NCBI GenBank assembly: GCA_944348085.1
Contig: CALVMU010000002.1
Span: 4,461-68,460, forward strand
Length of the DNA stretch: 64,000 nucleotides
Reading direction: 5' to 3'
DNA from: an uncultured Clostridia bacterium
GTDB taxonomy: Bacteria; Bacillota; Clostridia; Christensenellales; UBA1242
Shown: piece by piece, positions 2-18,441 of the stretch
How positions within the stretch are numbered: the stretch's first letter is position 1
Layout: each line of letters opens with the position of its first letter
Program-made: the position numbers and the translations under genes
Notes under the pieces: model-generated
The model's input: only the letters and a program-made list of their open reading frames with translations
The model's database searches: none
Told to the model about the DNA's origin: nothing

Positions 2-226
2 TATCATCACGATAAAGAGAAATACGAACTCCCTTCTTGTTACGATGGTTCTATCTTGCCCAACATTGAAACACTACATTACAAACAAAAGATAACCAAA
101 CGCAATGAATGGATTATTGACAACTGTGACATTTTAGTCTGTCACATAGAAGAAACTTACAAAAGTGGAGCTTACCACACCGTCAGATATGCCCAAAAGC
201 ATAATAAACCAATAATTTATATATAA
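2..226 (+). CDS. C-terminal fragment (gene runs off the left edge) of a SLOG-fold YpsA/DUF1273-like protein
   Basis: Frame 2 is open from the window edge to TAA at 224-226. It translates to ...ITKRNEWIIDNCDILVCHIEETYKSGAYHTVRYAQKHNKPIIYI. The pattern RN-W-hhD-s-D-hhh...(S/G)G...T..YA.K..KPI matches my memory of DUF1273/SLOG C-termini. Confidence 0.35.
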   Translation, partial: YHHDKEKYELPSCYDGSILPNIETLHYKQKITKRNEWIIDNCDILVCHIEETYKSGAYHTVRYAQKHNKPIIYI

Positions 227-590: not shown

Positions 591-1493
591 TTACTTTTGC
601 ATTTCCAACTCATCAAGAATTTTAACTGCACGAATAATTTTATTTTTTATGTCTTTGCACTCATCTTGGGTATATTTATATTCTAAATCATTTATATCTT
701 GTATTATCATTTCTTTATTTTTAATAATAATTTTAGCATGTCCCAAATTATTTCTAATATTATTTAATGATTTCAACAAGTTTATATCCCGATCTGATAT
801 ATTAACTAACCTATATTTTTTAAAGAGTTTTAGCAAATTTATTTTTTTGCACATATCAAATAAATAATTTTTATTCAAAAACAAACTTCTAACATAATCT
901 TCACTAGATTTACACTCGTTGATCTTTTTAGTAAAATTATCATTACCCTCTTCAACCAGTTTATCTACTTCATTTGATATAACTTGTTTTAACTCTTGAG
1001 ATTGTCCCTCATATAATTCAAGTAGAAATTTCCTTAATCTAAATTCAATATCACTATAATTGTGCAATACTACACCTCGTAATGATAATGGGTTAAGTGT
1101 CCTTTTCTCTAATTTTTCTAATATCTTCTCGGTTTTTAAAATTAAATCATCTCGCTTGCATATATACACTCCATCAAGCTGAAATTTATCAATTTTTTGA
1201 AATAAATTTTCATTTGTCGTTGAATATAATATTATATCTGTCAAACTTCTATTGTTATCCCTGATTTCCCTGATAACCTCATGCCCACTAATATCATTAA
1301 CTAAGCTATAGTCTATCAGATATAAATCATAATCCTCAGATTTAACTACTTCCTTATAGTCTGAGCCATTAGACAATTTTATATCTGGAATCAAGCCCAT
1401 AGATTCAACCTTTTTCTTTATTTTTTGATATGTTGAATCTTCTTCATCAAGAATATTATCATCAACTATTAATAATTTAAATTTTATGTCCAT
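591..1493 (-). CDS. Response regulator: N-terminal CheY-like receiver fused to a C-terminal HEPN-like (predicted RNase) domain
   Basis: 300-aa ORF. Receiver hallmarks: LLIVDD (D11/D12), phospho-acceptor Asp in DLYLIDYSL (D61), ILYST (S91/T92) and ICKRD (K113). The C-terminal ~170 aa are helical and contain NIRNNLGHA, the RNxxxH (Rx4H) HEPN signature (R247/H252). The ATG overlaps the upstream gene by 17 nt. Confidence 0.75.
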   Translation of the reverse strand: MDIKFKLLIVDDNILDEEDSTYQKIKKKVESMGLIPDIKLSNGSDYKEVVKSEDYDLYLIDYSLVNDISGHEVIREIRDNNRSLTDIILYSTTNENLFQKIDKFQLDGVYICKRDDLILKTEKILEKLEKRTLNPLSLRGVVLHNYSDIEFRLRKFLLELYEGQSQELKQVISNEVDKLVEEGNDNFTKKINECKSSEDYVRSLFLNKNYLFDMCKKINLLKLFKKYRLVNISDRDINLLKSLNNIRNNLGHAKIIIKNKEMIIQDINDLEYKYTQDECKDIKNKIIRAVKILDELEMQK

Positions 1494-3732
1494 ATGCTAT
1501 TTTCATCCTTAGTCCAAAAGAAAAATTTGTATCTATTAATTCTATTGTTCCATTCATAGATTTTAATATTTTTGATATCGTATAAAGTCCAATTCCTGAT
1601 CCCTCTGTAGAAGTATAACCTAATTTAAATATCTCCTCTTTATTTCTTATAGATTTATTCAACCCGTCCCCATCATCTAAAGCATCTAAAATTAAATATT
1701 TTTCATCATTACTAAAATTTAAATATAAGTTTTTAGCATGAGCTTTATTAGAATTGCTAATTAAGTTTTCAATGACTGCAACTATTTCTGATGCTGAAAA
1801 CTTTAATTTAATTTCTTTGTCCAAATTGTTTGTTATTGTAACTTTCATTCCTAAATTTGGAGATCTATCATATATATTTCTTACATATTCATTGATAAAA
1901 GCTACTAAATCTGAATCTAATTGTATATCTGACTTTAATGAAAAATTTGCTTTTAAACCAAAATTACTTATCGAATATATTTTACTAGCCAAAAAGTCAA
2001 CCTGTGCAAGATTTTTTAAAATATTGTCTTCTTTTTTATTTTTTATATTGTCGAATATTATTTCAATATATTCTTTAATCTTATTTGCGAACAACATATT
2101 CAAATGTATTATTTCTTTAGCTTTTACAAAATCCTCATTTGTCGTATTTTCCAAAAAATAGTTTTGATTTGTTATTCTTTGTAGTTCCTGTTTTGTATCT
2201 TCATGTTGTTTTCTTTGCTCTTCATTTTTTGAAATAAGTTTTCGATTTACTTCTTGTAAATCTTCTACTCTCTTTCTTGTAGAATTAATTAATGATAATA
2301 GCTGTTCATTATTATTTTTTTCGGCTATCAAAGATATTTTATTAAGTGAATTTTGAATTGAAGAATCTGCTACCTTTTTTGAAACTTCTGCAATTATATT
2401 TTCATCATATCTAAGTTCTATCGGATTTGTTTTCTTTGTTATACCAGCAATTTGTTTTACTAGTTTTTCAAAATTTATATTTGCAACACTAAACATTTCA
2501 GAATCAGGATCTCCCCAATCTAAAACATCTACAACATATGTCTCAAGGATCTTCATTTTATCAACAAAAAATTTTTTTAACTCATCTACTTGTCTTGATT
2601 TTATAAATCCCTTGTCTCTACTAGATACTTCAACAAATCCTTTAGCTTCACCATTTATTTCTATTCTTCCTACTAAATCTCTTGTACCAAAATATCTTCT
2701 AGTTCCTTGTTGTTGTCTTAAATTAATGCCAAAGAAATCATCGTCGATTTCACCATATGGTAATATCCTAAATCCATTTTTAAACACGAATATATTCCCA
2801 TATGAAACTTGTGATATTCCCATTATTTTTGAAAACAACAACTTTGCCTTACGATTCATATAAAATAATTTTAAATGAATATCTTTAAGTGTTGTGTAAT
2901 CCTCATTCTTCTCTTTTATATAGAAAACTTCCTGTCCTTTATCATTTAAAGATGTAATTATTTCTTTCCCTATAGGGTCGATGTCCACAGTTAAAGCTAC
3001 TGTTTTAATATTTAATGATTCAAATAAAGTATTCTTTATAACACCATTAACAATATCTCTATCATTATTATACATTTTATCTCTTTCTAACTCTAATTCT
3101 GCATGTAATTCTATTGAAAATTCTGATGAGTTGTCTGTATTTGGAGAAATAAGTTTCATTAACATTCTTTTTAAAGACAATAATTCATTCCTATCCCATT
3201 TTTCCCTTAAATTAGAAATTTTAATTAAAGTTCCTTGCTTAGGAAATGTCTCAATAATAAGATCTTCATATTCAACAGGTATATCTAAAAAACTTTGTTC
3301 ATCAACATTTTCAAAGTTATCCCAATTAATTGAAACATGATGAACCACATCTTCATTATATTTTCGTGTATACAAATCAACAATAGAGCCAACTCTATCG
3401 CATGAAAACCTACCAACACCTTTTGCACCTAATTGTTCTCTTTCAAATTTTATGCCCTTTTTTCTGGCATTCTCAAGTTTTTTGTCAGAATATGCTACAT
3501 TTAACCAATTATTTATTATCTGATTAGAGTCCATCCCCTTCCCATAATCTTGTATTTCAATACTATCTATTTCATCTTTTTTATAATTAAAGGTTATATC
3601 CACCTTTTTTGAGTTCGCATCAAAAGAATTTTTAACTAATTCAAAAATAGCAACAAACTTATTTGTTATTAATTCTTTTCCAATAATATTTTTTAAACCA
3701 GCACTAACTTTAAAATTTAATTTTTTAATCAT
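1477..3732 (-). CDS. Cytoplasmic dual-GHKL protein: N-terminal MORC/Hsp90/MutL-type ATPase module + coiled coil + histidine-kinase core (DHp-like His + CA domain)
   Basis: The ORF-track start (3798) is trimmed to ATG 3732 (MIKKLNF...), which overlaps the methyltransferase stop within ATGATTAA. N-terminal Bergerat motifs: ELVKNSFDA (N-box), DYGKGMD (G1), GAKGVGRFS (G2). The middle is coiled-coil rich (EDLQEVNRKLISKNEEQRKQHEDTKQELQR). Candidate phospho-His lies in EIIHLNMLFANKI. A second, C-terminal GHKL module has NLISNSNKA, DDGDGL and GSGIGLY. I saw no TM segments. Confidence 0.75.
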   Translation of the reverse strand: MIKKLNFKVSAGLKNIIGKELITNKFVAIFELVKNSFDANSKKVDITFNYKKDEIDSIEIQDYGKGMDSNQIINNWLNVAYSDKKLENARKKGIKFEREQLGAKGVGRFSCDRVGSIVDLYTRKYNEDVVHHVSINWDNFENVDEQSFLDIPVEYEDLIIETFPKQGTLIKISNLREKWDRNELLSLKRMLMKLISPNTDNSSEFSIELHAELELERDKMYNNDRDIVNGVIKNTLFESLNIKTVALTVDIDPIGKEIITSLNDKGQEVFYIKEKNEDYTTLKDIHLKLFYMNRKAKLLFSKIMGISQVSYGNIFVFKNGFRILPYGEIDDDFFGINLRQQQGTRRYFGTRDLVGRIEINGEAKGFVEVSSRDKGFIKSRQVDELKKFFVDKMKILETYVVDVLDWGDPDSEMFSVANINFEKLVKQIAGITKKTNPIELRYDENIIAEVSKKVADSSIQNSLNKISLIAEKNNNEQLLSLINSTRKRVEDLQEVNRKLISKNEEQRKQHEDTKQELQRITNQNYFLENTTNEDFVKAKEIIHLNMLFANKIKEYIEIIFDNIKNKKEDNILKNLAQVDFLASKIYSISNFGLKANFSLKSDIQLDSDLVAFINEYVRNIYDRSPNLGMKVTITNNLDKEIKLKFSASEIVAVIENLISNSNKAHAKNLYLNFSNDEKYLILDALDDGDGLNKSIRNKEEIFKLGYTSTEGSGIGLYTISKILKSMNGTIELIDTNFSFGLRMKIAYGHKI

Positions 3733-4930
3733 TGTATAAAAACTCCTTAAATATTTCTGCCAATTGTTCTGCAAACAATGGCGGAACTGCATTACCAACT
3801 TGTGTAAATCTTGGTACGTCTTTTTTCCTTAATTCCCCACCTGTTGTATATTTCCCTTTAAACTGATACCAATCTGGAAAACTTTGAATTCTTGCCAATT
3901 CACGAACTGTTAAAATTCTAGGTTCACTATAATGTACAAAATCATCGGGATGAGTCGTAACTGTTGGAGCTGGGCTATTAGGATCCAACAAAACAACCCC
4001 TCTCCTTTTTAAATTTGGAACCAAATTGTCTGATGGTTTATATCTTTTTCCATGTTCTAAGTGTTCAATCATAAATTTCTGCATTTCTTGGATTTGTTTA
4101 CTATGATTCGCAAATCTATGGCTATCTGGATTTTCGTCACTTTTGATTTTTTTTCTCATAAACCTTTGATATGATGTATTAATATTACCATAATAACCAC
4201 TATAAAAAAACTGTTTACAATCTGGACATTTATAGATACCATTACTCTCTAACAAATCTGAAATAGCATCGCCTACTGTAGTTCTTATATTTAGCTGTTT
4301 TTTCTTGAGAAATTTTAACTTATACTTGTCAAGTTTTTCAAAAAAATCATCTATATTTTTTTTCAAACTTCCAACCAAAATAAATCTTTTTCTTCTTTGA
4401 GGAATACCGTACTCATCCATAAAAATCTCTTTAACTTTTATATTATATCCTAATTTTTTTAATCCTTCAATTACAACTTCCGAGTATTTTATTTTATCTC
4501 CATTATTTAATTTAAAATCTACAGAAATACCATGAACGTTTTCTAAAAGGATATATTTAGGCTTTACGCATTTCACAAACTCTATATAATTATTTACCAT
4601 AGTATTCCTAAAATCACTATGATCCCTTCTTCCAGCCATTGAAAATCCTTGGCAAGGTGGACCTCCTACAACAATATCAATTTCCCCCTTAAGTTTATAT
4701 AATTCTTTCTTATATGTTTTAAGGACTTCGACAATATCTAATTCAGTTCTTGGTAGCCATTGTGGCCAATTAAATTTATTTTTAGAAATTAAGTTAAAAT
4801 ATAAAGTACTAAAAGCATCCTTATTTTTTTCTATCGCAAAAATTCCAGTATATCCGGCATTGCAGAATCCTAAAGAAAGTCCTCCAGCACCTGCAAATAA
4901 ATCAATAAAAGTGTAATTATTGCTTTTCAT
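3725..4930 (-). CDS. DNA (cytosine-5)-methyltransferase
   Basis: All canonical C5-MTase motifs are present: DLFAGAGG (I), GGPPCQGFS (IV, catalytic Cys), LLENV (VI), QRRKR (VIII), RELARIQSFPD (IX), GNAVPP (X). The ORF-track start 4948 is a TTG. ATG 4930 (MKSNNYTFIDLF...) is more likely. Confidence 0.92.
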   Translation of the reverse strand: MKSNNYTFIDLFAGAGGLSLGFCNAGYTGIFAIEKNKDAFSTLYFNLISKNKFNWPQWLPRTELDIVEVLKTYKKELYKLKGEIDIVVGGPPCQGFSMAGRRDHSDFRNTMVNNYIEFVKCVKPKYILLENVHGISVDFKLNNGDKIKYSEVVIEGLKKLGYNIKVKEIFMDEYGIPQRRKRFILVGSLKKNIDDFFEKLDKYKLKFLKKKQLNIRTTVGDAISDLLESNGIYKCPDCKQFFYSGYYGNINTSYQRFMRKKIKSDENPDSHRFANHSKQIQEMQKFMIEHLEHGKRYKPSDNLVPNLKRRGVVLLDPNSPAPTVTTHPDDFVHYSEPRILTVRELARIQSFPDWYQFKGKYTTGGELRKKDVPRFTQVGNAVPPLFAEQLAEIFKEFLYND

Positions 4931-5078
4931 TTTTTCTCCCTTCTTCAACTTTTACAATTTTTTTTATAGCTTCCACAACATATTCATTAATACTTTTATC
5001 ATTTTTAACAGCAATAAGTTTTATTTGTTTATGAAGTTCAGGAGACATACGTATAATTAAAGATTTTGTATTTTTCAT
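4917..5078 (-). CDS. Small ribbon-helix-helix (CopG/Arc-like) protein, candidate controller of the methyltransferase operon
   Basis: 53-codon ORF absent from the track: MKNTKSLIIRMSPELHKQIKLIAVKNDKSINEYVVEAIKKIVKVEEGRKNEKQ*. The beta-strand (LIIRM), helix (PELHKQIKLIA) and helix (SINEYVVEAIKK) pattern is typical of RHH. AGGAG lies 7 nt upstream. The 3' end overlaps the MTase start by 14 nt. Confidence 0.6.
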   Translation of the reverse strand: MKNTKSLIIRMSPELHKQIKLIAVKNDKSINEYVVEAIKKIVKVEEGRKNEKQ

Positions 5079-5087
5079 ATAAACTCC

Positions 5088-5120
5088 TAATGATATCTAT
5101 ATATCTTGATATAATGATAT
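5088..5120 (-). promoter_or_regulatory. Two 9-bp direct repeats (plus strand TAATGATAT) in the operon leader; candidate RHH operator
   Basis: TAATGATAT occurs at 5088-5096 (overlapping the RBS of the RHH gene) and at 5112-5120, 24 bp start to start, in the only plausible promoter region of the operon. Confidence 0.25.
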
Positions 5121-5343
5121 TATATAAATAAGAAAAATGCAACTTATTATGTAATTTTAATTTTAAAATTTTATATTTTTCAACTATTTGTATTTATACA
5201 GAAAATAAAAAAGATATCTACAAAAGATTATAAATTTTATAAGATTAATATAAACACTATAATTTTTATATAGAGCCAGAATATATTTCCTATAATTAGT
5301 TTGTTATTTTTATTATTAAATTTCATATTTCATGTTATAATAT

Positions 5344-6333
5344 CTAAATCCTAAAATACTTTTGGTTCTTACTGGTTGGTTTATCTGGTTCGGTCATACC
5401 GATTAGTCCGGCATCTAGGGCTGGTTGCAAATAATTTTTTCTAAAACCAACGCGAGATTTTAGGTTTAGTTTTTGCATAAGTTCGGTTGCAGATTGCGGA
5501 TAACTTTCAATAACTTTCATAAGTTCTGTAATTTGGTTGTTTATATGGTTATAGTGATTTCTTGTGTCTGTTATTATATCTTTAATCGCCTTATTTATCA
5601 CATCCAACATAAACACAATAAAAATATTTGATTTCGCCTGACTTGTTGACAATGTTATTGCATTGTAATAATCTTTTTGGTTATCTTTAATAATACTTTC
5701 AATAGGTACCCAAGCAAAGATTGGCTTCCAACTTGCAAGAAACGCAGTTTGCCAAAGTCTTCCCATTCTTCCATTCCCATCACGAAATGGATGGATGAAC
5801 TCAAATTCATAATGAAAAACACTAGACTTAATAAGCATATTTGCCGGGCTAGTCTTTATCCAGTCAAAAAGTTGCCTTAGCTGCTCTGGAACAAACTCCG
5901 CTGGTGGAGCAAGATGAACAACTTTTCCATGCTCGTTATAAACTCCAACTTGTCCTGTCCTTATTTTCCCCGCTTCGTTTACAAGTCCATTCATCATTAT
6001 TCCGTGAATTCTCAATAAATCTTCAATGCTATAAGGATTTATATTTTCAAATTCCTTATAAGCCAAGTTTGCATTTTGAACAGCAACTATATCTTCCTTT
6101 GGTCCAAACACTCGCTTTCCATCAATAACATCTGTCACTTGTTCAATTGAAAGAGTGTTGTTTTCAATCGCAAGAGAAGAATGAATTGATTTAATCCTAT
6201 TTACCCTGCGAAGCCTTGGCAATTTCTCAAGTTTATTAACCCCAGAGAGTCTCCCCAAATTCTCCATAATCTCGGAAACCAACTCCAACATCTCATCAGT
6301 TATTTCATAAGGTGGAATATATTTTTCGTCCAT
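5344..6333 (-). CDS. Fic-family protein (AMPylase-type), class II with N-terminal inhibitory helix, C-terminal winged-helix-like tail
   Basis: Fic active-site motif HPFRDGNGRMGR (HxFx[D/E]GNGRxxR). Upstream SLAIEN fits the [S/T]xxxE[G/N] auto-inhibition motif. Confidence 0.9.
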   Translation of the reverse strand: MDEKYIPPYEITDEMLELVSEIMENLGRLSGVNKLEKLPRLRRVNRIKSIHSSLAIENNTLSIEQVTDVIDGKRVFGPKEDIVAVQNANLAYKEFENINPYSIEDLLRIHGIMMNGLVNEAGKIRTGQVGVYNEHGKVVHLAPPAEFVPEQLRQLFDWIKTSPANMLIKSSVFHYEFEFIHPFRDGNGRMGRLWQTAFLASWKPIFAWVPIESIIKDNQKDYYNAITLSTSQAKSNIFIVFMLDVINKAIKDIITDTRNHYNHINNQITELMKVIESYPQSATELMQKLNLKSRVGFRKNYLQPALDAGLIGMTEPDKPTSKNQKYFRI

Positions 6334-6381
6334 TATAACCCTCTTAACAAAAAATTTATTTTATACCGACAAAATTAAATT

Positions 6382-7197
6382 TTAATCTCTATAATATTTA
6401 TAATCTTTATTTACTAATGTGTAATCAGATATACCACAATTTGCTTTATTGCCATTATTTTTCATAAATGCTGCAAAACTCATTATCGTATGGTATTCAA
6501 TCTCCTTTATATATTGATGAAACTTAGGATGGATAATCGCATACATAAATTTATTCCACCCTGGTATTTCCTTTCTCCCAACCTTTACTCTATCTCCAAG
6601 TCTTGTTGCACTACCAATGTATAATTCCTTTTTAATTTCATCAATTAAATAATAAACAACATGATTTTGATCTTCATGCTTCTTTAACTCGGAGATATCC
6701 ATCCATCTTGTATATTTCGTAATCATCTGATCTTGTTTTTCTAAGCTTAACCAACCAAACACATTCGAATCAACAAGGTGCTTAAATAAATTATCATAAG
6801 GAGTTTCAACTTTTATAAATGTTGACAATTCAATTTCAGTTTCATTTAGTTTCTCAAAGACAATCACCTCTTGACTTCCGCCAATAAGTTCAGTATGAAA
6901 TTTCCTATTTTTGTTAAGCAATTTTTGGCTTTCTATTGCAATATAAGATTGAATAAATTCTTTTTTTAATACTTTAACAAGTTCAGTATCTAAAAATATT
7001 TGAAAAACTTTTCTTCCTGTTGATTGTAAAACAAAAGAAAATTTCCCGATATATTTTTTATTTTTAAATTTTATGCTAATTTTTCTATGTGTACCCCATG
7101 TCTCTTTATTAACATCTATAAAGTATATCCAATATTTTTTTGGAACAGTAATCCTGCCATCAAATGTGGATTTATCTATTTTTTTATAATATTCCAT
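6382..7197 (-). CDS. GIY-YIG nuclease-domain protein with an uncharacterised N-terminal domain
   Basis: The C-terminal third reads VVYYLIDEIKKELYIGSATRLGDRVKVGRKEIPGWNKFMYAIIH...IKEIEYHTI. This fits GIY...YIG...R...E spacing. The N-terminal ~170 aa (ITVPKKYW..., KISIKFKNKKYIGKFSF) are unassigned. Confidence 0.5.
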   Translation of the reverse strand: MEYYKKIDKSTFDGRITVPKKYWIYFIDVNKETWGTHRKISIKFKNKKYIGKFSFVLQSTGRKVFQIFLDTELVKVLKKEFIQSYIAIESQKLLNKNRKFHTELIGGSQEVIVFEKLNETEIELSTFIKVETPYDNLFKHLVDSNVFGWLSLEKQDQMITKYTRWMDISELKKHEDQNHVVYYLIDEIKKELYIGSATRLGDRVKVGRKEIPGWNKFMYAIIHPKFHQYIKEIEYHTIMSFAAFMKNNGNKANCGISDYTLVNKDYKYYRD

Positions 7198-7340
7198 AAA
7201 TCATTTCTCCTTTTACATTATAACCTATTCTCACATTAAAAGTCAATCATCTTATATATTTTCTTATACACTTTCTTATATATTATTTTTGATTAGGAAA
7301 AATCAAATATACAAAATTCAATTCGTAATATATTTAGTTT

Positions 7341-7411
7341 TAGATAGTCCTAGATAGTCTAAAATAGATAGCATTTTACTTGAAAAGTAGGCATAGGTGT
7401 CGGTAGGTGTC
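7341..7411 (+). repeat. Clusters of short tandem direct repeats next to the tRNA-fragment junction
   Basis: TAGATAGTC at 7341 and 7351, plus TAGATAGC at 7365. TAGGTGTC at 7394 and 7404. A small hairpin ACTAGC-GTTTTT-GCTAGT follows around 7446-7463. Confidence 0.5.
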
Positions 7412-7517
7412 AGCAAATTTTGGAATTGACAGCAAAAGAAAAAACACTAGCGTTTTTGCTAGTATTTATAAGGGTTTTATTAGCAAAGAGCAAAAGTTTT
7501 TGTTAAAATCTTTTTAA

Positions 7518-7562
7518 TTGGTAAGGCTGAGGTCATGGGTTCGAGTCCCATCATAAGCTCCA
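7518..7562 (+). other. 3' half of a tRNA-Thr(GGU)-like gene (anticodon loop to CCA) with no 5' half; att-type duplication
   Basis: The sequence TTGGTAA-GGCTG-AGGTC-ATGGG-TTCGAGT-CCCAT-CATAAGC-T-CCA parses as anticodon loop (U33, GGT, A37), 3' anticodon stem, 5-nt variable loop, T arm, 3' acceptor strand, discriminator and CCA. Neither the required 5' acceptor strand GCTTATG nor the 5' anticodon-stem strand CAGCC is present upstream. Confidence 0.7.
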
Positions 7563-7565
7563 TAA

Positions 7566-7595
7566 AAAAAGCACAAAAAGTTGTGCTTTTTTTTA
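7566..7595 (+). terminator. Rho-independent terminator immediately after the tRNA fragment
   Basis: AAAGCACAA-AAAG-TTGTGCTTT followed by a T-run. Confidence 0.7.
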
Positions 7596-7662
7596 ATTCT
7601 TATTTTTTGGATGGTGAAAATGCCTAGAAACCTTTTGCGTCTTTTAATTTTTATGATTAAAA

Positions 7663-8277
7663 TTATAACATTCTAGAATCATATTTTTTCATATCTTCAA
7701 TAGAGCAATATCCAATAAAACCAAATGTGCCTTCAAATTTGTCAGGTCTCATTGCATAAATTGTCGCTCTTGAATGTCCTTCAATGATTAAAAATTTTTT
7801 ATTATTGCAGGTAATTAGTATTATTGGAGGAAAAGAAATTGTATCGATTATTTTAGTTCCAGTTATAAAAGGCTCATTTGACACACCAAATATTTCCACT
7901 CCATCAGCGATAGTGCTTGCGGCAATTTTAGGTTTGGAAGTCCCTTTGGATAATTTATTCCAATAATCATAATCAATATAAAAAAGTTTCTCTAAGTCAT
8001 TGCGATTAAATTTGACAAATTCCCATTTATGAATATAAGGAAAATTACCAAATAATTCCTTATTGGGATACCCTCTGTATTCCTTGATAATTTTCTTTCT
8101 TAGATTGTTTTCTTCTTTGGAATCCAAATTACCATTAAAAATTATATTTGTATCTAATTTTAGTTGATACAAAATTTGACGCAATTTTTTATCAAATCTG
8201 ATTGAATTTAATTCGCCTTTCAAAAATGTCAATATCATCTCATCTTCACTTGAATCTCTTAATTTTTCCAAAATCAT
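7663..8277 (-). CDS. Hypothetical protein (204 aa), no recognisable motif
   Basis: Long ORF with coding-like composition. No family was recognised by eye. Confidence 0.5.
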   Translation of the reverse strand: MILEKLRDSSEDEMILTFLKGELNSIRFDKKLRQILYQLKLDTNIIFNGNLDSKEENNLRKKIIKEYRGYPNKELFGNFPYIHKWEFVKFNRNDLEKLFYIDYDYWNKLSKGTSKPKIAASTIADGVEIFGVSNEPFITGTKIIDTISFPPIILITCNNKKFLIIEGHSRATIYAMRPDKFEGTFGFIGYCSIEDMKKYDSRML

Positions 8278-8307
8278 CCCCCTTGACTGCTGTGATATAA
8301 CTTTTTT

Positions 8308-9495
8308 TCAACAAAGCAGCCATTTTGCTTCATTTTTACGCATTTTGATAAGATAAAGTGCCATCGCTATTTGCAAAGCTACAAATATCAGGCAAATGCC
8401 AAAAATGTATCTTAGTCCAAGTTCAAAAGTAAAACCGATTATAAGAGTTCCAAGTGCTTTCCCCATATAGCCAAAGATATAGCGCAAATTGCTGAAAGCA
8501 AACATATCAGCTTTATCACACCTATTGACATAAATGCCGTCCGTTTTGTTTTCGTAAGCCCGCGATATAAAAAGCGAGAAAAATACTCCAGCAAATAAAA
8601 CTTCTTTTATTGGGAAAATGACTATGGCAAGATAGAACAAAAACCTTAATGCAAACTTGGTTAAGATTGTCACATAATCATTTTTTGGAGTCAATTTTTT
8701 CAGAGCCAGCATTCCAAATATATCACCACAAATACATCCCACCACGATAAAGAGCGCCGCTGTGGAGGAAGTAAACTGACCATATCTGACAAGCATCAAA
8801 AGTTGCATGCCAAGTGCTGTGAAATAAGCAACTTGACCAATAAAGAAATAAACCAGGTAAAAACAAAGAATTTTGTCTTTGAATATTTTCTTTATGTTGT
8901 TCTTGCGCACAGCGAAGAAAACCTTTTCGTTTTTTATAAACATAACAGAAATGGTGGAACAAAGCGTGAAAAGCAATGCAAGCATTATCATAGTATTATA
9001 ATCTATAAGCCACGAACCAATCTGTCTTCCAATTAAAAAACTGGCAATTAAAAGCCCCAAGTCTGTTGCTGAATATTCAACAAGTTTGCGTTTGCTATAC
9101 ATTTTATCGCTTTTTAAGATATAAGAAATGATAGGATAAGTTACTGAGGCAACCAAGTTGTCAGTTATTGCATCAAAAATAAAGGTCAAAATGCAGAGCC
9201 ATTTAATAGAAAAATAAGCAGCTAAAATCATTAAGGTTAAAAACACCAGTTTAAGCGGAAAAATTAATTTCAAAATAAAAAGTTCATTGACTTTTTTTAT
9301 ATATTTCGTCAATAAAATAACAATTACGCCAGCCACAAAAGTTGCACATGCAATTATCATTCCTATATTGGAAATGGTTATTCCTTGTTCGTTTAGCCAA
9401 ACTTGTGCAAAATCTGACCATACACCATTTGATAGTCCATAAAAAGCAAGATACAAAAAAATAAGCCGAATATTTTTCTTTTGTCTTTGTCCCAT
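8308..9495 (-). CDS. Major-facilitator-type membrane transporter
   Basis: 395 aa with about 12 hydrophobic spans in a 6+6 arrangement and a basic central loop (AVRKNNIKKIFKDK). Confidence 0.6.
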   Translation of the reverse strand: MGQRQKKNIRLIFLYLAFYGLSNGVWSDFAQVWLNEQGITISNIGMIIACATFVAGVIVILLTKYIKKVNELFILKLIFPLKLVFLTLMILAAYFSIKWLCILTFIFDAITDNLVASVTYPIISYILKSDKMYSKRKLVEYSATDLGLLIASFLIGRQIGSWLIDYNTMIMLALLFTLCSTISVMFIKNEKVFFAVRKNNIKKIFKDKILCFYLVYFFIGQVAYFTALGMQLLMLVRYGQFTSSTAALFIVVGCICGDIFGMLALKKLTPKNDYVTILTKFALRFLFYLAIVIFPIKEVLFAGVFFSLFISRAYENKTDGIYVNRCDKADMFAFSNLRYIFGYMGKALGTLIIGFTFELGLRYIFGICLIFVALQIAMALYLIKMRKNEAKWLLC

Positions 9496-9622
9496 TGTTT
9501 TTATTATAACAAACTTTTTCGCAAAACAAAAACTTTTTTAAACCAAAAAAACGCTATCCTTTTCAAAAAATGCAATAACCTTGTTTGCCACTTTATATTT
9601 TTCCCATCCAAAATGATGCTGT

Positions 9623-11569
9623 TTAAGTCATAATTTCATCATAAGTAAAACCATCTTTGACAAGATAATAGTGCATTCCAAGTTTTTTCGCAGAACGAAG
9701 ATCGTGCTTGAAATTGTTGCCAACAACCAAGATTTGATTGGCTTTTAAATTGTTATCTTTCATGATTTTTTTGTATATTTTATACTTATCAAGATTTTCT
9801 TTTTTAGAAATATTGTTGCTGATAATGCCAGCAAACAAGTTGCGATCAAACTCGTTGTAATCTACCGCCCTTTGCAAGTCTTTTTCTTTCCAATTTGAAA
9901 CTATATAGATCTTGCCCAGTTTTTTGAATTTTTCAAGTTCTTTGTTGCTGATGTGTTTTCCGCGAATATAATTTTCGTTTGTTTCAGTAAATTCTCTAAA
10001 AATCAAATAAGAATTATTGTTCCCTTCTATATCAAAAAGAATTTCATTTATCTGACTAGACAATCCTTCTCCATTCGGTCCGCAACCATATTTTTTGAGC
10101 AATTTAGCTCTTTCTCTTTCTGACATATACGAAAAATGTTCATTAAACCATTGCAAATTCATCTCTCTATGGTTGTCTTTTTTCATATCCCAAACAAGCG
10201 TATCTCTAAAGTCAAAAATTGTCACTTTTACCTGATTTGAGATGAGGTTTGGATCTTCATTGATATTGCATAGCCACTTTTTTCTTTTAAAAATGATAAA
10301 ATATACAGGCAAGAACAGAAGCGTTGGTATTAAAATGATCAAATAAGCCAAAGGAACGCTGACTGGAAGAAATTGAACAATAAAGCACATAGATACAAGA
10401 ATTACGCTACAGAAAAATTCAATAATAACAAAAATGGTATTTTTGCCACCTAATCTGAGCATATAACTGCCCATATTCCATGCAATAAACCTGAAGAAAT
10501 GTATCGCTACATAACAAGGCATAACCATAAACATTAAACTAAAATATTCTCTGTTTACACCAAGAGCAATTGGATAAATCAAAGCCATGCTTGCTACGAA
10601 ATAGAAACACCAAATCAATATTGAAGCAACAATTGATTGTTTTGCATAAGTATAGGCCTTATCAAATTGATTTCTTCCAAGGCATCGAGTGATTCTGATT
10701 GCACTGACACTTGAAAAGGCAAATAGAAAGCCATTAAAAACATCTAAAACATTTTCAAGATAAGAATATGTGTTGAAAATTCCATCACTAAATCTAATCA
10801 AAATCATGCTTGTCGCATAATATCCAATTTGCCAAATAAATTCGACGGCAAGATTTGAAAGCAAAATCCACCACTGTCTTTTTGTCAAATTTATTGTTTG
10901 AAGTTTGAAAAAATTCACAGAAATTTCTTTGTTTTTCATAAGCAAAATTATTGAAAATGTCATTGAAAAAACCGTTCCCAAAATATACGCAATCGCAATA
11001 TAATTAAGATAATAAATTCCACAAAAATAAAGAATAAGAAACCCTAAAATCGTGATTATAAGTGGCGTTATTTCACAAACAAATTGTTGTTTGAAAAATT
11101 TTAAACACTTCATTGTTTCAACAAGATAAGAACTTGTGCAAGACAAAAAGAAATAGCCACACATGATGTAGTAAAAGGTATAGCTCTCAGGATTGTAGCC
11201 CATCAAAGTTTCCATAAAAAATCTAGGGAAAAGGACAAGCAGTGCTGTTACAATAAAACTAAAAATAATATTTATCTCGAAACCTATTTTAGCATATTTT
11301 CTTACTTTAAATTTTGAGGATATATTTTGATTCATAAAAACAGAAATTGCATTTCCAATACCAAAGGCAATAATGCTAGCAAAAGCATAAAGCGAAAGAA
11401 ATGCATTAAGATAGGTCAGCTCTTTAACATTCAAAAGATTTGCCAAAATCGATATAATGCTATATAAAAAAGCAACGGCAACATATTTTAAAAGTAAAAA
11501 TTTGCTTTCTTTAAAAGTTGACCAAAAATATTTGAAAAAGATTTTAGTTTTTGATTGTGTTTTGTTCAT
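9623..11569 (-). CDS. Fusion protein: polytopic MATE/MOP-flippase-like membrane domain + C-terminal HAD-like hydrolase domain
   Basis: About 430 aa with more than 12 TM spans are followed by a soluble ~210 aa domain. That domain has HAD-like motifs: TIFDFRDTLV (motif I-like), IYIVSN (II) and VVGNNFKHDL (IV-like). Motifs I and IV deviate from DxDxT and GDxxxD. Confidence 0.45.
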   Translation of the reverse strand: MNKTQSKTKIFFKYFWSTFKESKFLLLKYVAVAFLYSIISILANLLNVKELTYLNAFLSLYAFASIIAFGIGNAISVFMNQNISSKFKVRKYAKIGFEINIIFSFIVTALLVLFPRFFMETLMGYNPESYTFYYIMCGYFFLSCTSSYLVETMKCLKFFKQQFVCEITPLIITILGFLILYFCGIYYLNYIAIAYILGTVFSMTFSIILLMKNKEISVNFFKLQTINLTKRQWWILLSNLAVEFIWQIGYYATSMILIRFSDGIFNTYSYLENVLDVFNGFLFAFSSVSAIRITRCLGRNQFDKAYTYAKQSIVASILIWCFYFVASMALIYPIALGVNREYFSLMFMVMPCYVAIHFFRFIAWNMGSYMLRLGGKNTIFVIIEFFCSVILVSMCFIVQFLPVSVPLAYLIILIPTLLFLPVYFIIFKRKKWLCNINEDPNLISNQVKVTIFDFRDTLVWDMKKDNHREMNLQWFNEHFSYMSERERAKLLKKYGCGPNGEGLSSQINEILFDIEGNNNSYLIFREFTETNENYIRGKHISNKELEKFKKLGKIYIVSNWKEKDLQRAVDYNEFDRNLFAGIISNNISKKENLDKYKIYKKIMKDNNLKANQILVVGNNFKHDLRSAKKLGMHYYLVKDGFTYDEIMT

Positions 11570-14001: not shown

Positions 14002-15672
14002 ATGAAAACAAAGAAAGAGAAAAAAGCCGGTCTTTTCAGCGCGATAAAAATGCTATGGCAATTTATGACAACAAAAGAAAAAGTTGAATTTGTTGTTTTG
14101 ATTTTGTTGTCTTGTTTTCCTGCATTTATAAACATTTACATGTCGATGATCCCTTCTTTGTTGATCGCCAAATTTGCAAATCAAGAATTTTTGATTTTTG
14201 GATTTATTGATTTTTTAGGCTTAGGCTATGTTGAATTTTTCTTTACTATTTTTGGTGTGTTAATTGTTATGTATACAATCAGCATGATTGTTTTGCGCGC
14301 TGTTGATATTTTTACACATAGATTGATGTATAACACCAACAAGCGCATCGAAGAAATTTTGCTTCTCGAGCGGAAAAATTTGGACATTAATATGACTATA
14401 GGCGAAGCAAACTATATCGCCAAAAATGCAGTTGACAATATATATAATATCATTAAGCCTTTATGTTGGACATTTCTGCGTTCGTTTTATTTTTTAATTT
14501 TTGGTTTGATTCAAATATTTTTGTTAAATGTTTATATTGGACTTGTTGTAATTTTCGTGCTCTGCGTAATTGCTTCTATGATTTTTGTGCGAACAAAATT
14601 TCAAAAGATTGTGATCAAAGATATAGAAAAATCAAATGCAAAAATCGGTAACCATTTTCTGATGACCTTGACAAACTTGCCAATGATAACAATGTTTAAG
14701 TCTAAATCAAAAGAAATGGAAGAACTTGGCAAACTAAATAAAACTTTTTTTAAACACAACAAAAAACTTGTCAATATAACCTACTGGTATTGGATTTTGC
14801 TATGCGCAGTTGAATATTTGAGTATTGCTGGAATTATTGTGCTTTTCTATTTTATTGGCTCACAAGCAAATTTGGCTACAAATATTGTGCTTTTATTCAA
14901 CCTGATTTTAAAAGCATACAACAATATTGAAGATTGGGGTTTTCAAGTGAGTGATTTGCAGTCGGCAAGCATCAAACTATGCAATCTAAAACTGCTCTAC
15001 CCTGAACAACAAAATATTAAAAAACAATTGTCTATAGTCAATGAAAAAATCAAAAATTCAAAAGTCTGGTCTATCAAAGTGGACAAATATCATGTCCAAC
15101 TTGGAGATTTTGAAAAAACTTACAACACTTCATTTCAAAGCGGAAAGGTCTATGTGTTAAGTGGACAAAGTGGCATTGGGAAAACAACTCTTATCAATGC
15201 CATCTGTGGCCTGCGCGAAATTGAAAGTGGTCAACTTATCATCAATAGAAAAGAGGTTGTGCCATCGCTATATGAATATCGAGACAAAATTTGCTATCTC
15301 TTTCAAGAGTCTATATTGTTTGACAGATCAATCGAAGACAACCTTGCCTATCCAGACGACCAAATTAATGACAAAGCAAAACAGCTTATTGATGAGTTTA
15401 ACATCAAGAAACTGCTTCTTAGAGACAAAACAACCGCCTATTTTGCAAAATCTCTTTCTGGTGGAGAGAAAAAACGCATTGAACTGATAAGAACATTAAG
15501 CAAAGATAAAGATATATACTTTTTTGATGAACCCACAAATGAACTTGACCCAGCCAATGTTGAAAAAGTTTTGAAAGAGATAAAACAACTTGCAGATCAC
15601 AAAAAGATTGTGATTGTCATATCTCATGACAAACGAGTGTTAAACATTGCCGATAAAGTAGTGCGGTTATGA
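14002..15672 (+). CDS. ABC exporter, fused permease + ATPase (half-transporter), paralog 2
   Basis: Same architecture and motifs as paralog 1. It starts 9 nt after paralog 1 ends and is colinear with it at a constant 1680-nt offset. Confidence 0.9.
   Translation: MKTKKEKKAGLFSAIKMLWQFMTTKEKVEFVVLILLSCFPAFINIYMSMIPSLLIAKFANQEFLIFGFIDFLGLGYVEFFFTIFGVLIVMYTISMIVLRAVDIFTHRLMYNTNKRIEEILLLERKNLDINMTIGEANYIAKNAVDNIYNIIKPLCWTFLRSFYFLIFGLIQIFLLNVYIGLVVIFVLCVIASMIFVRTKFQKIVIKDIEKSNAKIGNHFLMTLTNLPMITMFKSKSKEMEELGKLNKTFFKHNKKLVNITYWYWILLCAVEYLSIAGIIVLFYFIGSQANLATNIVLLFNLILKAYNNIEDWGFQVSDLQSASIKLCNLKLLYPEQQNIKKQLSIVNEKIKNSKVWSIKVDKYHVQLGDFEKTYNTSFQSGKVYVLSGQSGIGKTTLINAICGLREIESGQLIINRKEVVPSLYEYRDKICYLFQESILFDRSIEDNLAYPDDQINDKAKQLIDEFNIKKLLLRDKTTAYFAKSLSGGEKKRIELIRTLSKDKDIYFFDEPTNELDPANVEKVLKEIKQLADHKKIVIVISHDKRVLNIADKVVRL
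14924..15670 (+). repeat. Near-identical ~750-bp direct repeat, copy 2 (3' part of ABC paralog 2)
   Basis: See copy 1. Shorter islands of near-identity also occur at 12655-12760 vs 14335-14440 and at 12941-13030 vs 14621-14710. Confidence 0.9.
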
Positions 15673-15789
15673 GACGATTTTTAAATTATAATTTTTAAAC
15701 AAAATGCAAAATTTGCAATCTTTTCAACCAAATAGCATACAAAAAACAAAAAACTCTACGGTTAATGGGAGTTTTTTTGTTTGGCTATG

Positions 15790-15798
15790 TGATATAAT
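15790..15798 (+). promoter_or_regulatory. Extended -10 element (TGATATAAT) upstream of the XRE regulator
   Basis: TGnTATAAT lies 22 nt upstream of the ATG at 15821. AAGGAGG at 15808-15814 serves as the RBS. Confidence 0.4.
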
Positions 15799-15820
15799 GA
15801 AAGTGTCAAAGGAGGCACTT

Positions 15821-16426
15821 ATGGATTTGCAAATTATTGGAAAATTTATCAAAGAGCAAAGAAAGGCAAAAGGTTTAACGCAAGTTCAGCTTGCAGAAAA
15901 GATACATGTAAGCGAAAAAACAATATCAAAATGGGAATGTGGCAATGGCTTTCCTGACACCACCCTGATGTTGCCACTTTGCAATGCGCTTGACATCAAT
16001 GCAAATGAACTTTTGTCTGGCAAAAGACTGACAAATGATGAATACAAAACACAAGCTGAAAGCAACTTGCTTGTTTTGAAGCGCGAGCAAGAACAGAGCA
16101 ATAAATTTTTGCTTATGCTTGAAAATGTGCTCGGATATATGTCTTCCATAACCTTTATCATCTTGATTTTTGTCGCTTCATTTGTAGAAATGCCTACATG
16201 GACGCGCATTCTTTTGATGGTGATCGGTTTTATCCATATCGTTATTGGCATTCATTTTTGTTTGGCAATTGAAAAAGATGCTGGATTTTATGAATGTCAA
16301 CACTGCCATCACAAATATGTTCCAACCTACAAGCAAGTGCTCTTTTCAATGCATTATGGCAGAACGCGATATATGAAATGCCCAAAATGCAACAAAAAAT
16401 CATGGCAAAAAAAGACGACAAAGTAA
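15821..16426 (+). CDS. XRE-family HTH regulator with two TM helices and a C-terminal zinc-ribbon
   Basis: Start trimmed to MDLQIIGKFIKEQRKAKGLTQVQLAEKIHVSEKTISKWECG (Cro/C1 HTH) with a strong RBS. Then two hydrophobic helices, then CQHC...(22 aa)...CPKC. Confidence 0.8.
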   Translation: MDLQIIGKFIKEQRKAKGLTQVQLAEKIHVSEKTISKWECGNGFPDTTLMLPLCNALDINANELLSGKRLTNDEYKTQAESNLLVLKREQEQSNKFLLMLENVLGYMSSITFIILIFVASFVEMPTWTRILLMVIGFIHIVIGIHFCLAIEKDAGFYECQHCHHKYVPTYKQVLFSMHYGRTRYMKCPKCNKKSWQKKTTK

Positions 16427-16460
16427 ATTGCCGCCTTTTTTATACAACTTTGACTATCAA

Positions 16461-17450
16461 TTATAACAACTCTATTTGCTGCTCTTCGCAACTCTTTAAA
16501 GTATCTTTGTCCCAATAACTTGCTTGAACTTCACCAATATGAGCTCTACCAAGAAGTAACATGCAAAGTCTGCTCTGTCCTATTCCTCCTCCAATTGTAA
16601 GAGGAAGCTTATCTTCCAAAATGGCTTTGTGGAATGGATAGCTAAGTCTCTCCTTTTTGTCAGCTTTTTCAATTTGACTGAGAAGGCTTGTTTTGTCAAC
16701 TCTGATTCCCATGCTGGAGATTTCAAGAGCCTTATCAAGAACATCATGATAGAAAAGCAGATCTCCATCCAGACTCCAATCATCATAGTCTGGTGCTCTG
16801 AGATCATGTGGCTTGCCATCGCTCAAATCATCACCAATTTGCATGATGAAAACAGTTCTGTATTTTTTAGTGATTTTGTCTTCTCTTTCTTTCGCTGTAA
16901 GAGTTGGATACATATCTAAAAGTTGCTGAGTTGTGATGAAGTAAACATCTTTTGAAATGTCAATCCCCTTGAAACCTTTTGATTTGATAAAATCACTTGT
17001 CTCTGCAATTGCTTTAACGATTTTTCTTACCGTCTTTTTTAAATAATCAAAAGTTCGATCTTCTTTTGATATAACCTTTTCCCAATCCCATTGGTCAACA
17101 TAAATAGAATGAGTTGCGTCAACTTTATCATCTCTTCTTATTGCAGTCATGTCTGTATACAGACCTTTATGAAGAGGAAATTCATACTTTTTCAGCGCCA
17201 TCCTTTTCCATTTTGCAAGAGACTGAACAATTTCAAGATCTTTTCCGTCTTTGGCAATATCAAATGTGACCGCGCGTTCAGTTCCGCTTAAGTCATCTTG
17301 AAGCCCGCTTTCTCGCGTAACAACAATTGGGGCTGAAACTCTGACAAGGTCAAGTTCTTTTGCCAAAGCTTTTTCAAATTTGTCTTTTATAAGTTTTATA
17401 TATTTTTGTTTTTCGAGCACGCTCATTTTTATATATTTTTCTTTTAACAT
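16461..17450 (-). CDS. asnA: Aspartate--ammonia ligase (asparagine synthetase A)
   Basis: 329 aa with class-II aaRS-like AsnA features along the whole length: VSAPIVV..GLQDDLSG.ERAV.F, YVDQWDWE, GGGIGQSRLCMLLL. RBS AAGGAG. Confidence 0.9.
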   Translation of the reverse strand: MLKEKYIKMSVLEKQKYIKLIKDKFEKALAKELDLVRVSAPIVVTRESGLQDDLSGTERAVTFDIAKDGKDLEIVQSLAKWKRMALKKYEFPLHKGLYTDMTAIRRDDKVDATHSIYVDQWDWEKVISKEDRTFDYLKKTVRKIVKAIAETSDFIKSKGFKGIDISKDVYFITTQQLLDMYPTLTAKEREDKITKKYRTVFIMQIGDDLSDGKPHDLRAPDYDDWSLDGDLLFYHDVLDKALEISSMGIRVDKTSLLSQIEKADKKERLSYPFHKAILEDKLPLTIGGGIGQSRLCMLLLGRAHIGEVQASYWDKDTLKSCEEQQIELL

Positions 17451-17529
17451 AATTTTTCTCCTTAAATTTATATTTTTTTTGCAATTTTTTTACAAAAAAC
17501 ATTTAAGGAATAAAAAATCTGCCAAAAAA

Positions 17530-17592
17530 TCACCTTAAATGCTTAAAATTATTACCATCCTTTTCGCCCGCTACGGCATTAGTCTTTTTCAT
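17530..17592 (-). CDS. Small ORF (20 codons) with a very strong RBS between the attenuator and asnA
   Basis: AAAGGAGGTAAAT-ATG, encoding MKKTNAVAGEKDGNNFKHLR*. Coding status is unproven. Confidence 0.3.
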   Translation of the reverse strand: MKKTNAVAGEKDGNNFKHLR

Positions 17593-17612
17593 ATTTACCT
17601 CCTTTTTTCATA

Positions 17613-17639
17613 GAAAAAGCACCCTATAGAGAGGGTGCC
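17613..17639 (-). terminator. Attenuator hairpin 2: intrinsic terminator in the asnA leader
   Basis: Minus-strand RNA GCACCCU-CUCUAU-AGGGUGC followed by UUUUU. Confidence 0.65.
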
Positions 17640-17659
17640 ACTTAACAACAATAAATAAA

Positions 17660-17688
17660 AACACCCTCTTGGATTTCAAGAGAGTGTT
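17660..17688 (-). promoter_or_regulatory. Attenuator hairpin 1 (11-bp stem followed by a U-run) in the asnA leader
   Basis: Minus-strand RNA ACACUCUCUUG-AAAUC-CAAGAGGGUGU followed by UUUUU. Its 3' arm (AGAGGGUG) is also complementary to the 5' arm of hairpin 2 (CACCCUCU). Confidence 0.6.
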
Positions 17689-17727
17689 AAAACAAATTTA
17701 TTTTTTCAACAACAAAATTGAAACCCA

Positions 17728-17781
17728 TTATTTTAATGCGTTTAAATTATTATTGTTGTTGTTATTCAAAATTTGTCTCAT
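17728..17781 (-). CDS. Asn-rich leader peptide of the asnA attenuator
   Basis: ATG AGA CAA ATT TTG AAT AAC AAC AAC AAT AAT AAT TTA AAC GCA TTA AAA TAA encodes MRQILNNNNNNNLNALK*. That is 7 consecutive Asn codons and 8 Asn among 17. A weak SD (AAGGAA) lies upstream. The ORF sits between a consensus promoter and the two hairpins. Confidence 0.7.
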   Translation of the reverse strand: MRQILNNNNNNNLNALK

Positions 17782-17811
17782 TTTTGTTTCCTTTTTCTAT
17801 GATATAGTTTT

Positions 17812-17839
17812 ATTATATCACAATTTATGCTATTGTCAA
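17812..17839 (-). promoter_or_regulatory. Sigma-A-type promoter of the asnA leader
   Basis: The minus strand has TTGACA, a 16-nt spacer and TGaTATAAT (consensus -35, extended consensus -10). Confidence 0.65.
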
Positions 17840-17928
17840 CTGTTTTGTTATAATTTTTTACAAATTATGTTAAAAATTTTTATGATTATTAAAATAGTTA
17901 TTTTTCCTGTTTTGCGCATACTAAAAAC

Positions 17929-18422
17929 ATGGAATATGTTAAAGGCAAGCCATACTTTTGTGACTGCAAAGAAAAAATCAAACAGTATAGATATTTGGAT
18001 AGAGATTTTCACTGCGATATTTTGATTGTTGGAGGCGGGATAGATGGTGCCATCGCAAACTTTTATCTTGCGCAAAATTTTGATGTGGCACTTGTTGATA
18101 AAGGTCACATAGGTTTTGCCTGCACCGCATGCGCAACTGCTCTTTTGGAATATCAACTCGATGACAATGCCGCCGATCTTAAAAAAAACGATGAGCATAA
18201 AAACTTGTTGTTGATTATAAATTTTGTGCCTGTTTTGGAACAACGCAAAACAATCTAGGTCTTATTGGCGCTAGCAAGATTGAGGAAGACATATTGCTGT
18301 TTATAAGCTGCGGCGCAAACGGAATCATCAATGCCATGAAAGGCATTGAAATCATCGAAGATTTGCTTCAAGGGAAAAATAACAAACTTTCGTCAATTTC
18401 TTCACCAAAAAGAGAAGTTTAA
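17929..18422 (+). pseudogene. FAD-dependent oxidoreductase remnant (N-terminal ~85 aa and C-terminal ~55 aa in different frames, middle missing)
   Basis: The N-terminal piece has the dinucleotide-binding motif DILIVGGGIDGAIANFYLAQNFDVALVDKG. It then degenerates and stops at 18258. A second frame reads GLIGASKIEEDILLFISCGANGIINAMKGIEIIEDLLQGKNNKL...* and ends at 18422. Intact family members are several hundred aa long. Confidence 0.55.
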
Positions 18423-18441
18423 ATTTTAACGGAGCAAATTT

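Follow-up and report, generated by a model that had tools for sequence, protein, structure and literature searches.

What does a response regulator do when its receiver is followed by a helical domain and not by a DNA-binding one? This question is raised by a gene at 591..1493 on the minus strand of a 64,000-nucleotide stretch of DNA from an uncultured Clostridia bacterium (contig CALVMU010000002.1), the whole of which we refer to as the window. Databases name this regulator "response regulator" or "hypothetical protein". An earlier note on this DNA had read the protein as a receiver fused to a HEPN-like domain, i.e., as a possible phosphorylation-controlled ribonuclease (RNase). This reading finds partial support: architecture and motif stand on firm ground, a HEPN fold is probable, and the activity is what we infer from sequence. 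Starting from the observed domain composition, invariant residues, and gene linkage, we favor, on balance, the interpretation that the regulator is the effector of a methylase-linked two-component module and that its output is a phosphorylation-gated HEPN RNase, as predicted from these features. The regulator gene and its parts are located in the window as follows.

591..1493, minus strand: REC-HEPN-like response regulator gene; 300 amino acids plus stop, ATG start (open reading frame call and family alignments)
1140..1493, minus strand: receiver (REC), residues 1-118, with the acidic pair D11-D12, the phospho-acceptor D61, S91, and K113-R114
1092..1139, minus strand: linker from REC to the output domain, a continuation of α5 (helix 114-132; DSSP on the AlphaFold2 model)
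594..1091, minus strand: HEPN-like helical output domain, residues 135-300 (AlphaFold2 model and sub-threshold HEPN matches in relatives)
1311-1313, minus strand: codon of D61 (translation check)
738..755, minus strand: RNNLGH (R247-x4-H252), candidate HEPN catalytic motif at the C-terminal end of helix H3 (translation check)
1074..1079, minus strand: R139-G140, second invariant pair, at the N-terminus of helix H1 (translation check)

Conservation and predicted fold of the output domain

An Rx4H string by itself is trivial; what lifts this motif above chance is its invariance across diverged relatives. The close family comprises 16 members. When a profile of residues 121-300 was run exhaustively over 1.8 billion representative proteins, 51 proteins were returned at E ≤ 1e-3. 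About a dozen of these are shorter and probably partial; the others are 290-330 residues long and carry the domain at ~125-300, i.e., after a receiver-sized N-terminus. A wider profile search gave 92 more-or-less full-length relatives, and a search for related loci with the close-family alignment found one true relative and two receiver-only proteins. A tblastn search of plasmids with two family members found no match. Five residues (R139, G140, R247, N248, and H252) are invariant in all 134 sequences that contain the whole domain, among which identity to the window protein falls to ~15-20%. R247, N248, and H252 are also invariant in 122 of 122 full-length relatives. Conservation of R247 and H252, a check that the earlier note had proposed, is therefore without exception among the 134 relatives. 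The pair R139-G140 is a candidate for a second active-site residue or for the interface between REC and the output domain.

This conservation bears on a first alternative, namely that the C-terminal domain, HEPN-like or not, has a regulatory, non-catalytic role and binds RNA, DNA, or protein. The locus would then encode an ordinary two-component system that tunes the methylase or nearby restriction-modification (R-M) genes. Non-catalytic HEPN domains are known, MtlR being an example (PMC3710099), and Foldseek provided no structural match that would confirm a nuclease fold. However, Arg, Asn, and His that never vary and keep the Rx4H spacing in 134 sequences, while everything else has diverged to 15-20% identity, are the mark of a catalytic site and not of a binding surface, and no helix-turn-helix (HTH) or other nucleic-acid-binding family was matched. 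We consider a non-catalytic output rather unlikely.

The fold was predicted twice with AlphaFold2, for the full-length protein (13-sequence alignment; mean predicted local distance difference test (pLDDT) score 86, predicted template modeling score 0.83) and for the isolated output domain (pLDDT 85). The order of elements in the two models is H1 (135-162), H2 (166-180), a helical insert (185-226), H3 (234-252), a β-hairpin (254-265), and H4 (276-298). Except for this one hairpin, the domain is all-helical, and H3 ends exactly in RNNLGH. The description of a helical output that carries this motif was therefore accurate, and so was the claim that the output has no HTH or winged-helix pattern: no such family matched the domain at E ≤ 1. 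HEPN domains have been described as a four-helix up-down fold with an insert between helices 2 and 3 and with the Rx4-6H motif at the end of helix 3, where the loop to helix 4 begins (Anantharaman et al. 2013, PMC3710099). The predicted layout of the output domain fits this description. An HTH output was rejected for lack of a match, as were ANTAR and other RNA-binding outputs.

The families that the output domain repeatedly matches are HEPN families, all below the curated cut-offs. A member from Pseudomonas aeruginosa, which joins the family at E 6e-17, has RiboL-PSP-HEPN as its best Pfam match (E 4.8e-5; 23.8 bits against a cut-off of 28.4), with residues 141-292 aligned to positions 27-189 of 191. 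The same protein also matches Swt1 and Apea, and another member matches RiboL-PSP-HEPN at E 6e-5. MAE_28990 was matched at E 3.5e-4 (member P0026, residues 163-277 against model positions 53-178 of 211) and at E 2e-3, and family members also matched Swt1, Apea, and AbiU2; every one of these Pfam matches is sub-threshold. Among the families of the PADLOC collection, six of the 11 matched by real sequences bear HEPN domains. The PADLOC HEPN matches are to CARF_HEPN (three members), Csx1/Csm6 (E 7.7e-4), Cas13-ApeA, a Csm6-like CARF model, and Cas13a; in NCBIfam, Cas13a was matched at E 1.6e-3.

As a control, 40 sequences were reversed and used as decoys. These matched 11 PADLOC and 49 Pfam families, with HEPN in none of the 11 PADLOC families and in none of the 25 Pfam families listed out of the 49. 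The enrichment of HEPN in real over decoy matches to PADLOC has a Fisher p of 0.006 when counted by families and 0.002 when counted by member hits. Overall, the output domain probably belongs to the HEPN superfamily.

Several points weigh against a phosphorylation-gated HEPN RNase. No family member reaches the curated threshold of any HEPN family, and the window protein itself has no HEPN profile match. A word-seeded profile search returned family members only, none with a Pfam HEPN annotation. When nine sub-family consensus sequences were compared with Pfam, weak HEPN matches were mixed with spurious helical families; a Lys/Glu-rich consensus also matched PEP-utilisers_N at E 6e-5, a spurious-looking match of similar strength. 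Single matches near E 6e-5 are no proof, because a consensus matched this unrelated helical family equally well. A Foldseek search of the Protein Data Bank (PDB) and BFVD with the isolated output domain found nothing at E < 0.05 and no HEPN domain in the top 50; the best results had E 0.06-0.12 and a template modeling (TM) score of 0.24. HMMER searches of PDB sequences with family profiles and with the Pseudomonas C-terminal domain found nothing relevant. The fold is consistent with HEPN but unconfirmed, because the layout fits whereas the Foldseek and PDB sequence searches gave no HEPN match. For the HEPN-like four-helix core expected in the earlier note, this means that helix order and motif position agree, whereas Foldseek produced no HEPN structure and the profile matches stay below threshold. 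On the signaling side, the phosphotransfer chemistry may be atypical, because an Arg replaces the usual receiver Lys (see below). The RNase activity and its control by phosphorylation are what we infer from sequence, and the input signal is a guess from gene context.

A second alternative makes the helical bundle a phosphotransfer domain of the Hpt-like kind, or some other new enzymatic domain, in which H252 would be the phospho-acceptor of a His-Asp-His relay to a further target. As is generally known, an exposed invariant His on a helical bundle right after a receiver would also suit Hpt modules, and by Foldseek the fold is unconfirmed as HEPN. Yet PF01627 is not among the matches listed for the members scanned at E ≤ 0.5-1, and the HxxKG signature is absent, the motif here being RNxLxHxK. 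The invariant Arg-Asn four residues upstream is, moreover, the HEPN hallmark, and none of the 11 loci described below has a conserved second receiver. We consider an Hpt-like or other new enzymatic output highly improbable, and an Hpt domain proper was rejected on the grounds that PF01627 is absent from the listed matches and the motif is wrong.

The receiver and its partner kinase

If the output domain is a HEPN RNase, the receiver would be its switch. The Pfam model Response_reg (PF00072) matches residues 14-100 of the window protein with 31.5 bits against a gathering score of 30.2; those relatives whose scores were listed fall below the gathering score. The AlphaFold2 model has a clean (βα)5 receiver fold (E4-10/H20-31/E35-41/H46-52/E57-61/H70-80/E86-91/H97-102/E109-113/H114-132), in which α5 runs on as a long helix (114-132) into the second domain. 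A Foldseek search with the full model matched only receiver domains or receiver-containing regulators (PorX, NarL, and EutV), and stand-alone CheY-like receivers aligned to it with a Foldseek probability of 1.0 and a TM score of ~0.6. Across the 122 full-length relatives, D12 is kept in 117, and D56, D61, and S/T91 are each kept in 121. At the position of the β5 lysine, 112 of the 122 have Arg and seven have Lys; the window protein reads K113-R114. The receiver had been called canonical, which is nearly right, because the fold and the catalytic residues (D12, D56, D61, and S91) are kept, with one systematic departure from Lys to Arg in β5.

The regulator gene is the last of four overlapping genes on the minus strand, preceded by genes for a ribbon-helix-helix (RHH) protein, a DNA methylase, and a kinase.

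1477..3732, minus strand: kinase gene, 751 amino acids from the ATG at 3732 (Pfam HATPase_c_3 and HATPase_c)
2104-2106, minus strand: codon of kinase H543, in a DHp-like helix
3725..4948, minus strand: C5 cytosine DNA methyltransferase (Pfam DNA_methylase, E 3e-57; PADLOC MTase_II, E 2e-86)
4917..5078, minus strand: RHH (HicB/ParD-like) gene, 53 amino acids (Pfam HicB, E 1.8e-9, and other RHH families including ParD and Omega-repressor-like)

The kinase stop codon and the regulator start overlap by 17 nucleotides, and the methylase stop and the kinase start by 8 nucleotides. The true start of the methylase is probably the ATG at 4930. The RHH gene overlaps the methylase start, and the same small gene is found 5' of the methylase at two other loci (L001 and L002); the 53-residue protein is a likely controller of the operon. 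A scan of the locus for promoters and terminators gave nothing informative in this AT-rich DNA. Directly upstream of the module, on the same strand, is a gene for a Fic-domain protein (window 5344-6333; Fic, E 9e-22, with a Fic-like C-terminal winged HTH). On the other side, the 3' end of a gene that runs off the window start (2-226, plus strand) is convergent with the regulator gene.

Across loci, the kinase is a soluble protein of 750-830 residues. It consists, in this order, of an N-terminal MORC/paraMORC-like GHKL ATPase, a middle domain, a coiled coil, a DHp-like helix, and a C-terminal CA domain. The N-terminal ~190 residues match the BbrUII/HgiDII restriction-enzyme family (NCBIfam NF050001, E 1e-22), which ties the sensor end of the kinase to genuine R-M enzymes. 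A comparison of 11 orthologues with 31-79% identity showed that the Bergerat-fold motifs of the GHKL module are invariant (E31/N35/D38, D62xGxG66, and G102..G107). The same is true for the N, G1, F, and G2 boxes of the CA domain (N656/N660, D686xGxG690, F702, and G711xGxG715). The single invariant His is H543 (in IIHLN), on the helix that follows the coiled coil; the H-box reads IIH-L or HH-Q. In PADLOC, the kinase gave only a weak match to MzaB. The kinase family contains at least 2,603 clusters at E ≤ 1e-5, many of them from Pseudomonas, Acinetobacter, and Proteus.

A strongly conserved middle domain with no Pfam match occupies kinase residues ~230-450, flanked by the MORC-like ATPase and the coiled coil. 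Its invariant positions include N319-G-F-R322, P325, G327, D332, R339, Q342-G343, R346, R351, E368, S371-R372, and G375. This domain may be a transducer or the DNA-reading part of the sensor.

The module across loci and among known systems

We compared 11 loci: the window, three Clostridia-type relatives, Agrobacterium, several metagenomic lineages, P. aeruginosa, and Acinetobacter baumannii. The kinase stop overlaps the regulator start in all 11, by 17, 4, or 1 nucleotides, and a C5 DNA methylase adjoins the kinase-regulator pair in every case. Kinase and regulator distances correlate (Pearson r 0.91), and the regulator diverges faster than the kinase (17-58% against 31-79% identity). This conserved partnership with kinase and methylase, a context that the earlier note did not have, gives the idea of a HEPN output most of its weight. 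At three proteobacterial-type loci, a gene for Vsr is located directly upstream of the kinase (L007, 5311-5565; L008, 5173-5592; L009, 3789-4208), which argues that the partner methylase is active as a 5-methylcytosine methylase. Neither a stand-alone nor a second conserved receiver was found in the 11 loci, and Pfam and NCBIfam scans of the operon found no recognizable DNA endonuclease domain. The loci are surrounded by integrases, other R-M systems, a TIR-TPR gene, conjugation genes, or prophage. Taken together, the module looks like a widespread, mobile three-gene set of methylase, MORC-like ATPase-histidine kinase, and predicted receiver-HEPN protein that resembles a phage-defence system.

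Two of these loci have neighbors of their own interest. The island at L003 encodes a 1139-residue TIR-TPR protein (15522-18941) and also carries two C5 methylases and Vsr in a second cluster (1543-4870), which is a typical defence-island setting. At L017 (A. baumannii, 4600-10900), the trio is located inside a prophage-like region with CI/Cro-type repressors and a Dam-type methylase, and a Mrr_cat nuclease gene is found directly upstream of the kinase.

Genes called RR-like and HK-like, with exactly the same architecture and neighborhood, have been described in association with paraMORCs (Bellieny-Rabelo et al. 2021, PMC8011034). As in the module studied here, that system combines a soluble kinase (N-terminal HATPase_c_3, a DHp-like His helix, and a C-terminal HATPase_c) with a receiver-like protein of ~300 residues. 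In both cases a C5 methylase and often Vsr are neighbors, and the two share host groups (Pseudomonas, Acinetobacter, Agrobacterium, and Bacteroidia). The corresponding Pfam models PF19192 (Response_reg_2) and PF19191 (HEF_HK) did not match ~15 members at E ≤ 1 (window) or E ≤ 10 (relatives, including Pseudomonas, Acinetobacter, and Proteus), these models being either very narrow or missing from the Pfam copy used. The H-box also differs: here it is H-L/Q, whereas the kinase in PMC8011034 has an acidic residue (Glu/Asp) after the His. Because the two models are unmatched and the H-box differs, the module may belong either to the same family or to a sister family.

The 2021 paper makes no mention of HEPN or RNase and gives no function to the C-terminal half of the regulator. 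It treats the pair as a putative R-M-associated signaling system, and it essentially leaves open the reading of the output as a non-catalytic domain. Two observations from the loci speak against such an output. First, sequence divergence is faster in the regulator than in the kinase, a pattern shown by effectors in conflict systems. Second, the operon already has a likely transcriptional controller in the RHH protein.

The HEPN RNases of defence systems are among the closest known comparisons. [quoted passage not shown] By analogy with the CARF domain in Csm6 or the kinase domain in Ire1 and RNase L, the N-terminal domain of the regulator could control dimerization. Unlike these enzymes, the output domain passes no curated HEPN threshold and has no structural match. 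PMC3710099 describes no receiver-HEPN fusion; the word receiver appears there once, in connection with a transmembrane domain whose fusion partner is either HEPN or a receiver. The pairing of an N-terminal GHKL ATPase with a C5 methylase recurs in BbrUII/HgiDII-type enzymes and in paraMORC R-M systems (NF050001; Iyer, Abhiman & Aravind 2008, PMC2292703). The remainder of the BbrUII/HgiDII enzyme is replaced here by a DHp and CA kinase core.

The closest validated functional analogue is Detocs (DtcABC; Rousset et al. 2023, bioRxiv 10.1101/2023.01.24.525353), which shares only the two-component principle. In this abortive-infection defence system, a histidine kinase acts with a REC-effector protein, and defence depends on phospho-His and phospho-Asp. 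In both systems the response regulator has had its DNA-binding output replaced, in Detocs by a cell-killing effector. In contrast to the MORC-like GHKL sensor here, the Detocs sensor (DtcA) is TPR-based, and its effector (in DtcC, a REC-PNP protein) is a PNP ATP nucleosidase or one of a minority of other effectors and not a HEPN domain. Detocs also contains a buffer receiver (DtcB) and lacks a methylase, whereas the 11 loci contain a C5 methylase and no stand-alone receiver. No PADLOC model matched the regulator; for this reason, and since the parts differ, membership in Detocs was rejected. A figure legend in a 2026 machine-learning survey includes a predicted, unvalidated system that has HATPase and REC genes and may or may not be the module described here.

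The comparison with Detocs also bears on a third alternative, in which phosphorylation, or binding to the kinase, keeps the HEPN-like RNase inactive as a latent toxin. The module would then serve the methylase-bearing island as an addiction or post-segregational-killing device, and loss of the element or of kinase activity would free the RNase. Detocs requires its buffer receiver against autoimmunity, and the lack of one here could mean that the resting state is controlled differently. HEPN toxins are commonly neutralized, either through covalent modification or through a partner protein; PMC3710099 discusses HEPN-MNT systems. The gene overlap implies a fixed stoichiometry of kinase and regulator, and the module is carried on mobile islands with integrases. 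On the other hand, phosphorylation activates the output in nearly all characterized response regulators and in Detocs, and a large, sensor-like GHKL module with intact ATP-binding motifs exceeds the needs of a simple antitoxin. A toxin silenced by its kinase strikes us as unlikely.

A possible mechanism and its significance

How might a phosphorylation-activated HEPN RNase serve a DNA methylase? We surmise that the GHKL module of the kinase would sense the state of DNA, most simply target sites left unmodified by the partner methylase, as they would occur on incoming phage or plasmid DNA. Sensing would switch on autophosphorylation at H543, from which the phosphoryl group would move to D61 of the regulator. 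Phosphorylated receivers would then dimerize through the α4-β5-α5 face and the continuous α5-linker helix. This would join two HEPN-like domains and form the composite Rx4H active site that HEPN RNases require. The resulting metal-independent RNase would cut cellular RNA, invader RNA, or both (tRNA, rRNA, or mRNA) and cause growth arrest or abortive infection, while the methylase would silence the system on self DNA. Overall, such a module would follow restriction-modification logic with the DNA endonuclease replaced by His-Asp signaling to an RNase.

In its most specific form, this proposal amounts to restriction by signaling: a MORC-like GHKL clamp would read cytosine methylation, and unmodified DNA would trigger His-to-Asp transfer, activation of a dimeric HEPN RNase, and abortive infection without any cut in DNA. 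We put this form forward tentatively, as a possibility that falls short of probable. If it is true, the module would be a widespread and so far unnamed defence system, because the kinase family is large and includes P. aeruginosa and A. baumannii, and the regulator would be the first receiver-gated HEPN nuclease.

If the assignment of the regulator as a phosphorylation-gated HEPN RNase is correct, the missing effector would have been found for a widespread module whose 2021 description went no further than a two-component-like system near R-M genes. An RNase would join the catalogue of response-regulator outputs and might, as a phosphorylation-switchable enzyme, serve as a tool. The module would be a second two-component defence system beside Detocs, and a mechanistically different one. 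It would also provide a concrete hypothesis, open to testing, on the way in which prokaryotic MORC-like ATPases link DNA sensing to an output, a question that bears on the eukaryotic MORCs as well.

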